From positions 1 to 4,746 of IMG/VR virus record IMGVR_UViG_2703718769_000009: DNA of 4,746 bases. One strand, written 5' to 3'. Origin of the DNA: a virus. Lineage: Duplodnaviria > Heunggongvirae > Uroviricota > Caudoviricetes. Shown piece by piece: positions 2,839 to 4,746 of this stretch; position 1 is the stretch's first letter, and every line of letters starts with the position of its first letter. Below the pieces are notes generated by a model. That model worked only from the letters and a program-made list of their open reading frames with translations. It searched no databases and was not told the origin of the DNA. Position numbers and translations under genes: made by a program.

Positions 2839-2949
2839 AGATATGGTCAGTTCAGGCTGTGAAGCAAGTAGACAGATAAGGCTACAATAAAAACTGACAA
2901 TAGTAAAATAGCTTTTTCCCAGGTAGTCATGAATACGATCTCTTAAAGC

Positions 2950-2969
2950 GCCCGCTGATACCAGCGGGC
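2950..2969. other. perfect 8 bp GC-rich stem-loop (GCCCGCTG-ATAC-CAGCGGGC) about 110 nt downstream of the methyltransferase stop
   Basis: Exact inverted repeat read from the sequence. No U-tract follows on the + strand; only a short TTT on the - strand. Confidence 0.5.
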
Positions 2970-3231
2970 AATACATACTGGCATTAATGTTAAGTTCAGG
3001 GATAATTCATCGTATTTTGTGGTACGACGCTATCAATGTTAATAAACAGTATTTTTCATGTAAAATTTCTGTTTTTTTGATCTGATTCTCGTTTCCTGGG
3101 TTATGATGTTGTTGTGAACCATGCTGTTGAATGATAATGTTCGGGTATAAAATTGTTGCTGATATGTAGCGCAGTGAGCAGGTGGTATTTCTGTTGCTGA
3201 GTGTACGGATACAGTGCTTCCCTCCCTCAGC

Positions 3232-3240
3232 GGGGGGGGG
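3232..3240. repeat. G9 homopolymer tract, preceded by a complementary C/T-rich run (3217-3227)
   Basis: ggggggggg at 3232-3240. The upstream CTTCCCTCCCT can pair with it in + strand RNA through C-G and U-G pairs. Confidence 0.6.
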
Positions 3241-3610
3241 AAGGTGTGCTGTGGTTTTAGAAACACCGGAAACGAGAATGATGCGGGTTTGCTGGTGCCG
3301 GGATAGAGTCGCCGGAGGTCATGACATAGAGCAAAAAAGGAATGTGCATGCAAATACACACCTCTTCGGAGAGCTCTTCTTTATATGGATGAGCCTCAAG
3401 GTCAATAGTTCATCTGTTATGTATTCATATGTTGTTACTTATATAATCCATACGGGCATATCATCAGTACACACATACTATTATGGCATTTTATTTTTGT
3501 TTTAACTGAATTCCCGGGGCACTCTTTTTGATTTCTGATAAGGAACCAGAATTTTCTGTTAAATGGTGTCACGTTGTAAATGGTTAATGGAAGCAGCTTA
3601 TTATCCATAA

Positions 3611-3634
3611 TCACACCTGAGTTAACAGGTGTGA
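3611..3634. repeat. perfect 9 bp inverted repeat TCACACCTG-AGTTAA-CAGGTGTGA; candidate operator or RNA hairpin
   Basis: Arms 3611-3619 and 3626-3634 are exact reverse complements with a 6 nt spacer. No U-tract on either side. Confidence 0.55.
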
Positions 3635-3967
3635 GAATACTTCCGGGTGGCAGGAACACATCTGACTGATACCAGATTATCAACTTTATTTTACACCATA
3701 CAGTTGAAAACGTTATTCCGCTTGATGGGCATATCACTGTGTCAATAACTATCCATTCCATCTTTTAACCTTCTCGGTACACATTGCTTTCGATTGTTTT
3801 GCTAAAAATCATAGTCAATAAATCAGTGTAACTCATTGAAAAAGATCGTTTTCTTTGTCTTCCTGGGGTTTTCTTTTCTATTTTGTATCACTTTGGTTCA
3901 AGTTGTTTCATTTTTTTGTAATACAAATTAGCAGGATGAGCGGGAATATAAAAAAAATCGGATGTTT

Positions 3968-3995
3968 TTGTAACGGATATTATTTTTTGTAAAAT
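3968..3995 (+). promoter_or_regulatory. candidate sigma70 promoter for the downstream esterase gene: -35 TTGTAA, 16 bp spacer, -10 TAAAAT
   Basis: TTGTAA at 3968-3973 and TAAAAT at 3990-3995, about 65 nt upstream of ATG 4062. Embedded in three direct copies of TTTTTGTAA (3913-3921, 3965-3973, 3984-3992). Confidence 0.3.
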
Positions 3996-4061
3996 AATGT
4001 ATTTTTATTTAAATCTCTCTCAGAAAAGAATTTATTGTTCCTTTATATGGTGGAAAAGGTC

Positions 4062-4746
4062 ATGGTATTTAAACACTACGATGTGGTCAGGGCGGCGTCG
4101 CCGTCAGACCTTGCTGAACGACTGACACAAAAACTGAAGGAGGGGTGGCAGCCATTTGGCAGTCCGGTGGCCATCACGCCTTATACACTGATGCAGGCCA
4201 TTGCCGCAGAGGGTGATGTGACCACGCCTGTGGTTGTGCCCGACACAGGGGCTGGTGGCTCTCCGGGAGTGGCTACCACTGAACCGGAGTATTACTACGT
4301 TATTCCCCTGGCCGGGCAGTCGAACGGTATGTCCTATGGTGAGGGGCTTCCTCTGCCGGAGACCTATGATCGCCCTGACTCCCGTATTAAGCAGCTGGCG
4401 CGTCGCAGCACTGTGACGCCGGGTGGTGATACCTGTGCATACAATGACGTTATTCAGGCAGACCACTGTCTGCATGACGTCATTGATATGAGTGGATTCA
4501 ACCACCCACGGGCCGACCTGACAAAGGGGCAGTATGGTTGTGTGGGGCAGGGGCTGCATATTGCCAAAAAGCTTCTGCCGTTCATTCCGGTAAATGCAGG
4601 TATTCTCCTGGTTCCGTGCTGTCGTGGTGGCTCAGCATTCACCTCCGGAGATGATGGCGCATTTACTGAGTCTACCGGTGCTTCCGCCAGCTCAGCCCGA
4701 TGGGGAGTGGGTAAACCGTTGTATCAGGATTTTCTCTTCCGTACAA
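4062..4746 (+). CDS. nanS-p: 5' part of a prophage 9-O-acetyl-sialate esterase-like protein (NanS-p-like; DUF1737-type N-terminus plus SGNH/SASA esterase domain); 3' end lies outside the window
   Basis: ATG 4062 with GGTGG 8 nt upstream; frame open to the window end (228+ codons). Translation MVFKHYDVVRAASPSDLAERLTQKLKEGWQPFGSPVAITPYTLMQ... then YYYVIPLAGQSNGMSYG with the GQSN catalytic-serine block (nt 4314-4325). GC-rich with E. coli-like codon usage. Not in the ORF track because it has no stop in the window. In Stx phages this gene family lies directly downstream of stxB. Confidence 0.75.
   Translation, partial: MVFKHYDVVRAASPSDLAERLTQKLKEGWQPFGSPVAITPYTLMQAIAAEGDVTTPVVVPDTGAGGSPGVATTEPEYYYVIPLAGQSNGMSYGEGLPLPETYDRPDSRIKQLARRSTVTPGGDTCAYNDVIQADHCLHDVIDMSGFNHPRADLTKGQYGCVGQGLHIAKKLLPFIPVNAGILLVPCCRGGSAFTSGDDGAFTESTGASASSARWGVGKPLYQDFLFRT

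Follow-up and report, generated by a model that had tools for sequence, protein, structure and literature searches.

The window, by which we mean the whole stretch of 4,746 nt that was analysed, belongs to a lambdoid, Stx-phage-like prophage without stx, of which it is the late-regulatory region. Its genes follow the order rusA, a gene at the Q position, a small ORF, a methyltransferase gene (+ strand), an iraM homologue (- strand) and a sialate esterase gene (+ strand). The run of nine G that concerns us here lies in an unannotated gap of 596 nt that extends from the stop codon of the methylase to that of iraM, the end of iraM being 195 nt away from the tract. The features that bear on it are the following:

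1762-2838, + strand: DNA methyltransferase gene, which forms the left edge of the unannotated gap.
3178-3184, no strand assigned: first copy (GCAGGTG) of a 7-bp direct repeat, the second copy, at 3240-3246, being GAAGGTG in the window and GCAGGTG in the common allele.
About 3186-3394, + strand: diverged STnc100-family sRNA gene or relic, with the core nhmmer alignment at 3221-3381.
3217-3227, + strand: pyrimidine run CTTCCCTCCCT, the 5' arm of a hairpin, equivalent to AAUCCCCCU of the STnc100 hairpin H1 and about 4 nt longer.
3228-3231, + strand: loop CAGC, which aligns with the (G/A)(U/A)GC loop of the STnc100 family hairpin.
3232-3240, + strand: G9 homopolymer forming the 3' arm, which aligns with GGAGGGGCG of STnc100 and is hypermutable.
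3362-3387, + strand: degenerate remnant of the STnc100 terminator, GCCCCUCUCCGGAGGGGCUUUCUU having become CUCUUCGGAGAGCUCUUCUUUAUAUG.
3435-3761, - strand: iraM homologue (anti-adapter protein IraM, WP_001443281.1; phrog_4407), facing the sRNA relic in convergent orientation.
4061-4746, + strand: 5' part of a SASA/DUF6645 sialate esterase gene (nanS-p type), a gene that usually follows STnc100 and PasD.

The gap was found in 29 complete E. coli genomes (O111, O103, O121, O39 and others) at 98.3-99.0% identity over at least 90% of its length, and PGAP has annotated nothing in it in those 29 genomes save a short hypothetical protein at the left edge in strain 8E. Comparison between prophages divides the gap into three parts: 2839-3094 is common to many prophages, the sequence from 3361 on is common to other iraM loci, and the 266 bp between them (3095-3360) looked at first like an orphan. 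At the position of this middle part, strain STEC299 has three tRNA genes and further sequence; a tRNA scan of the window found none, and neither the gap nor the 266-bp module gave a megablast or blastn match in phage and plasmid collections.

Several other elements of the region may be recorded here. The iraM homologue has no SNP in its 327 nt across 28 aligned loci, while about 2% of the sites in the flanking DNA are variable, a pattern that suggests purifying selection on a lysogen-expressed gene, here a prophage-borne iraM (an RpoS-stabilising anti-adapter) in the stx-proximal cargo slot. In the AT-rich DNA upstream of iraM, the T-run at 3983-3988 (an A-run on the iraM strand) ranges from 6 to 10 among the related loci and may belong to the promoter or the leader of iraM. 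A perfect 8-bp G+C-rich hairpin at 2953-2972 (GCCCGCTG-ATAC-CAGCGGGC, followed on the - strand by GCUUUAAG) sits in the post-methylase segment that is common to many prophages (83-85% identity). About 100 nt past the gene at the Q position, CCACC-TGAA-GGTGG followed by T7 (1271-1291, + strand) resembles tR', the terminator of the late promoter region, at which the short StxS-type transcript of Stx phages ends.

Positions 3217-3244 read, in order, CTTCCCTCCCT, CAGC, GGGGGGGGG and AAGG, as the sequence-only reading of this DNA had described them, and they hold the only G9 or C9 run in the window. In dinucleotide shuffles such runs averaged 0.05 per window, and at least one was present in 7 of 200. 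That reading also held that the two runs could pair in the RNA of the + strand only, and the asymmetry that it noted was borne out. The best register, from C3217-G3243 to T3227-G3233, has 11 pairs in the window allele, nine of them Watson-Crick and two G-U; since the two G-U pairs become C-A mismatches on the - strand, the strand asymmetry is real. For positions 3205-3255, the + strand RNA is predicted to fold at -27.3 kcal/mol (z -3.16, with 1 of 200 shuffles equally stable) and the - strand RNA at -16.4 kcal/mol (z -1.8), and folding the hairpin with DNA parameters gave the same order as with RNA (-10.9 kcal/mol for the + strand and -7.2 kcal/mol for the - strand). Three structural interpretations of the motif were considered and rejected. 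An intrinsic terminator has its stem at the tract, but the nearest U4 on the + strand (3254-3257) is 10 nt past that stem and the - strand has none. A canonical G-quadruplex would need at least 15 G, and the sequence offers just one run of 6-12 G with no adjoining G3 runs. For H-DNA or a triplex, the pyrimidine and purine runs share a strand and so make an inverted rather than a mirror repeat.

The length of the G-run was compared across 36 related loci from 20 RefSeq genomes, 15 IMG/VR entries and one metagenome (the one extra locus that a metagenome scan yielded, with G6), which are not all independent, because some strains may be present both as an IMG/VR entry and as a RefSeq genome. With the window counted, the tract was G6 in six loci, G7 in 15, G8 in six, G9 in four, G10 in three, G11 in two and G12 in one, G7 being the commonest allele, and the pyrimidine run and loop were invariant in all 37 tract-bearing loci. 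Nine loci of the O111 group share identical flanks of 390 nt on the left and 195 nt on the right (585 nt) and nevertheless carry 8, 8, 8, 9, 10, 10, 10, 11 and 12 G, so that the proposal of a length-variable tract held even inside a single flanking haplotype. All indels of the 1.2-kb region are in homopolymers; four other homopolymers in it vary too, but they track the SNP haplotypes and are constant within the O111-group haplotype. Among haplotypes with G6 or G7, the length hardly varies. Since the G-run changes length in one identical flanking haplotype in which the A/T runs are fixed, we are confident that it is truly hypermutable. In E. coli mononucleotide runs, the indel rate climbs exponentially with run length (PMC11754648), and we infer that slippage is the cause of the length variation.

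The position of the tract in the prophage is that of a known small RNA gene. In Stx2 phages, STnc100 has been reported past the stx2 operon at a distance of 75 nt (PMC12370729). PasD and STnc100 are both linked to the esterase gene, and a common ancestor has been proposed for them (bioRxiv 10.64898/2026.05.13.724894). In Stx2a phage EH1910 and in STEC299, Rfam places STnc100 on the + strand directly beside iraM (153.8 and 146.4 bits, respectively), and the segment of the window occupies the same position, past the stx/tRNA slot, convergent with iraM and before the esterase gene. The Rfam model itself (RF02076) gave no match at E <= 1 in the whole window or at E <= 10 in 3100-3420; its gathering score is 47 bits and true copies score 136-165 bits, so that the copy in the window is below threshold. 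A profile of 102 STnc100 variants used with nhmmer gave weak local matches (E 1.2 and 1.7) that were collinear and correctly spaced, and when 3095-3360 was aligned locally with the copies of STEC299 and EH1910, no significant score was obtained. The homology becomes clear only with closer variants of the family. One STnc100 copy (165 bits in Rfam) gave a single nhmmer match to the window, at 3221-3381 on the + strand (E 1.6e-8); ten different bona fide copies gave E values from 9e-9 to 8e-4, all collinear and on the + strand; and searches with single copies matched the window only at 3186-3402, again on the + strand. The common alleles score the same in nhmmer as the window allele. Global alignment to the 102 variants reached a score of 33 at best, compared with an average best of 15.0 +/- 2.3, and never more than 21, for shuffled sequence; control regions of the window gave nothing. 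The best conserved block is 3270-3315, with 78% identity over 46 nt, and the homology from 3361 on is the end of the STnc100 terminator. From these comparisons we are confident that the segment is a strongly diverged copy of an STnc100-family gene and that the motif is its inherited 5' hairpin. Some IMG/VR prophages (L071 at 811-1488 and L054 at 3121-3798) have two full tandem STnc100 copies with a weak third match between them, just past three tRNA genes, and the second tandem copy of this type is the closest relative of the window segment.

The hairpin itself can be followed base by base. Positions 40-60 of the STnc100 model, tccccctgagcggaggggcga, align with CCTCCCTCAGCGGGGGGGGGA of the window and form the first stem-loop of the Rfam consensus structure. 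In the family, this hairpin has the form UGGUGAAU-CCCCCU-NNGC-GG-N-GGGG-C, in which the N of the 3' arm is A, U or C. One subfamily has CCUUUCU/GAAAGGG instead, with compensatory changes from C-G to U-A at two pairs. The window alleles align in register with the family hairpin. The commonest allele, GCGG-G-GGGG-C, is the family sequence with N = G, that is, seven G and then the conserved C; in the window allele, nine G are followed by an A where the conserved C would stand. As the alignment indicates, the 11-nt all-pyrimidine run 4 nt from G9 is no chance neighbour, and the two runs are the arms of one hairpin inherited from an sRNA gene. It is probable that the homopolymer arose by one substitution at the variable position between two G blocks: a change from N to G in the family arm GCGG-N-GGGG-C would join GG and GGGG into G7, a G:C run of seven would slip at replication and drift to between 6 and 12 G, with fast change once it had at least eight. 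The rest of the gene has decayed, most of its terminator, long-range helix and CCGGG hairpin being lost. The change is presumed to have run from N to G; exact-pattern scans of species-representative genomes with two motifs found no match and so yielded no outgroup.

Several observations suggest that the copy has decayed. Of the 47 consensus pairs, 29 are still possible, and they are unevenly spread, with 5/5 in the 5' hairpin, 3/8 in the long-range helix, 2/5 in the CCGGG hairpin and 4/9 in the terminator stem. The whole 266-nt module on the + strand folds no better than its shuffles (z -1.3). No sigma-70-like site was predicted in 3067-3550 and no terminator-like site at the tract or at the terminator remnant. 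The SNP density of the segment (5 per 200 nt) equals that of the flanking non-coding DNA, whereas iraM has none in 327 nt. The segment has also been disrupted in two independent ways: in strain 8E (locus L037, near position 1140) the DNA between the GCAGGTG repeats is deleted (62 bp when measured against a G9 allele) and the entire hairpin with it, and strain 2014C-3599 (locus L038, 3040-4303) carries IS600 at 3376-3378, in the terminator remnant. We therefore favour, with a probability of roughly 0.7, the interpretation that the copy is a relic and that the length of the tract is without consequence, a neutral hypermutable sequence. The earlier proposal of a functional + strand RNA structure thus fares differently in its two parts: the structure is there by descent, both runs aligning with the conserved STnc100 5' stem-loop, but a function for it is less likely, as the copy looks decayed. 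There are points against a relic. The hairpin is the sole fully kept element and both its arms are longer than in the family, which could reflect selection on the stem; none of the loci read that retain the segment has fewer than six G; and a diverged sRNA can remain functional. It is on balance that we infer a lack of function, and nothing found here suggests an effect of the tract on virulence or phage biology.

The main rival to the relic is a live, divergent STnc100-like sRNA whose 5' stem is tuned in length by the tract. According to this proposal, the G-run would set the 5' stem-loop at about 8 to 13 pairs and with it the stability or level of the RNA, providing a heritable and reversible tuning of a riboregulator. 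The retention of all five hairpin pairs together with the lengthening of both arms would favour it, as would the predicted hairpin energy of about -22 to -35 kcal/mol, which deepens as the tract lengthens. A closing helix is possible in both alleles (AAGG or CAGG past the run), through CUU/AAG or UGC/GCA. Furthermore, the relative PasD2, an abundant and Hfq-dependent sRNA (PMC8550237 and its supplement), starts right at the hairpin. Against this proposal stand the degenerate terminator and the lack of any predicted terminator-like or promoter-like site, the failure of the Rfam model to detect the copy, a SNP density no different from that of neighbouring non-coding DNA, the natural deletion and IS600 alleles, and a module no more structured than its shuffles. 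We consider a live sRNA of this kind unlikely, and there is a slimmer chance that an expressed STnc100-like sRNA has its level heritably and reversibly altered in EHEC O111, O103 and O121 as slippage of the G-run (6 to 12) resizes a protective 5' hairpin. If it were true, it would represent a phase-variable small RNA in E. coli, and since the gene is convergent with iraM, iraM and the control of RpoS might also be affected.

A distinctly unlikely alternative assigns the role to the - strand, where the C-run would belong to a C-rich, G-poor stretch past iraM that loads Rho and stops iraM read-through before it enters the late operon in antisense. Poly(C) is a classic strong activator of Rho, the - strand has a C/G ratio of 2.3-2.8 between 3354 and 3235, and its RNA shows no structure over the module (z 0.13). 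This skew, however, stems from a + strand that is a G/U-rich sRNA relic, in a window whose + strand is G-skewed throughout; relatives with an intact STnc100 have no C-run, and one strain has deleted it. A hairpin with U6 at 3360-3331 on the - strand may, moreover, already end the iraM transcript. When compared with a rut site (C-rich, G-poor, weakly structured, about 80 nt or more), the region agrees on composition only, and a Rho-loading role would thus be one that base composition fits and nothing else does. As observations in their own right, 3095-3354 on the - strand has a strong excess of C over G (C/G up to 2.8) with unstructured RNA and resembles a Rho loading region past iraM, and at 3331-3360 on the same strand UGUGUAUUUGCAUGCACA followed by UUCCUUUUUU makes a hairpin and U-run about 75-105 nt past the iraM stop. 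The latter could be an iraM terminator built from sequence of the sRNA relic; relatives have a strong STnc100 terminator hairpin at that place instead.

It is very unlikely that the length differences are errors of homopolymer sequencing or assembly, even though homopolymer miscalls are frequent in long-read assemblies and the adjoining esterase gene is flagged as frameshifted in several of these PacBio-era genomes. Errors would have to account for a range of 6 to 12, for G7 in all sampled O121 loci, for a span of 6 to 11 G in IMG/VR contigs derived from draft genomes, and for A/T runs of 6-8 nt that track the haplotypes. The concordance of near-identical strain pairs (1056-1 and 1074-2, both G10; 01_3327 and 07_3986, both G8) also argues against random assembly error. 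Some of the length differences could all the same be homopolymer errors of long-read assemblies. In five loci (L005, L006, L008, L010 and L014), the esterase gene that follows iraM bears a flag for a frameshift or an internal stop, which points to either true pseudogenes or indel errors from long reads and is a caveat for homopolymer counts from those assemblies.

Least credible of all, and hardly to be entertained, is a phase-variation switch that turns a small protein gene on or off by frameshift: ORFs of about 100 codons do span the tract on both strands (3182-3505 on the + strand and 3039-3359 on the - strand), and the - strand ORF measures 106, 117 or 44 aa according to tract length modulo 3, but the DNA shares ancestry with a non-coding RNA gene, has no evident ribosome-binding site with a start codon, and carries no annotated gene in the 29 RefSeq genomes. 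The three concatenated frames over the tract found nothing in 5.8 billion protein clusters, neither a homologue nor a called copy of themselves, and nothing in Pfam or the PHROGs, whereas IraM matched phrog_4407 at 3e-55. A ribosome-binding site reading of AGGGAGGG on the - strand was rejected, there being no start codon after it. The idea that the tract shifts these overlapping reading frames is not supported: the frames lack homologues and PGAP annotation, they differ between alleles, and one strain has deleted the tract.

The preferred interpretation, a hairpin inherited from a decaying sRNA gene, explains an odd-looking motif by descent and shows how a decaying structured-RNA gene can yield a hypermutable tract. 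The segment adds a diverged member to a known sRNA family, the simple-sequence repeat in it being of a known kind too, and no description of an STnc100 variant bearing a homopolymer was found in the literature examined. Annotation based on Rfam overlooks diverged STnc100 copies, a point that matters when the prophage sRNAs of pathogenic E. coli are surveyed. The G6-G12 tract, changing fast in the O111 lineage, is a possible marker for fine-scale typing and also a likely point of disagreement between assemblies.

Among known systems, the segment is nearest to STnc100 (RF02076), with which it shares strand, synteny, a collinear homology over about 165-200 nt (E of about 1e-8) and a 5' hairpin at the same place. 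It differs from STnc100 in scoring under the Rfam threshold, in the decay of the terminator, long-range helix and CCGGG hairpin, in a 5' portion of 40 nt that cannot be aligned, and in having a variable-length G homopolymer as its 3' arm opposite a 5' arm longer by about 4 nt. PasD1 and PasD2 (EcOnc13) of EPEC and EHEC prophages are situated immediately before the esterase gene (bioRxiv 10.64898/2026.05.13.724894), and PasD2 starts with the same hairpin, GGUGAAUCCUCCUUGGAGGGGC; however, the window segment has no significant direct similarity to PasD2 (z -0.2) and lacks the PasD seed and terminator.

With the contingency loci of Neisseria, Campylobacter and Bordetella, the tract has in common a G:C run of at least seven, a change in length by slippage and differences between close relatives, being G6-G12 overall and G8-G12 in one flanking haplotype. 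The tracts of those loci, however, are located within ORFs or promoters, where they switch a gene, whereas the tract of the window lies in a non-coding sRNA relic, where the ORFs have no homologues and 3067-3550 has no sigma-70-like site. Polymorphic mononucleotide repeats were reportedly described in non-coding E. coli DNA by Gur-Arie et al. in 2000 and by Diamant et al. in 2004, and the tract resembles them in being non-coding and in varying between strains. It stands apart from them in that, in E. coli, G:C runs of 9-12 are much rarer than A/T runs, and it has seven length classes where the neighbouring A/T runs have two to four.
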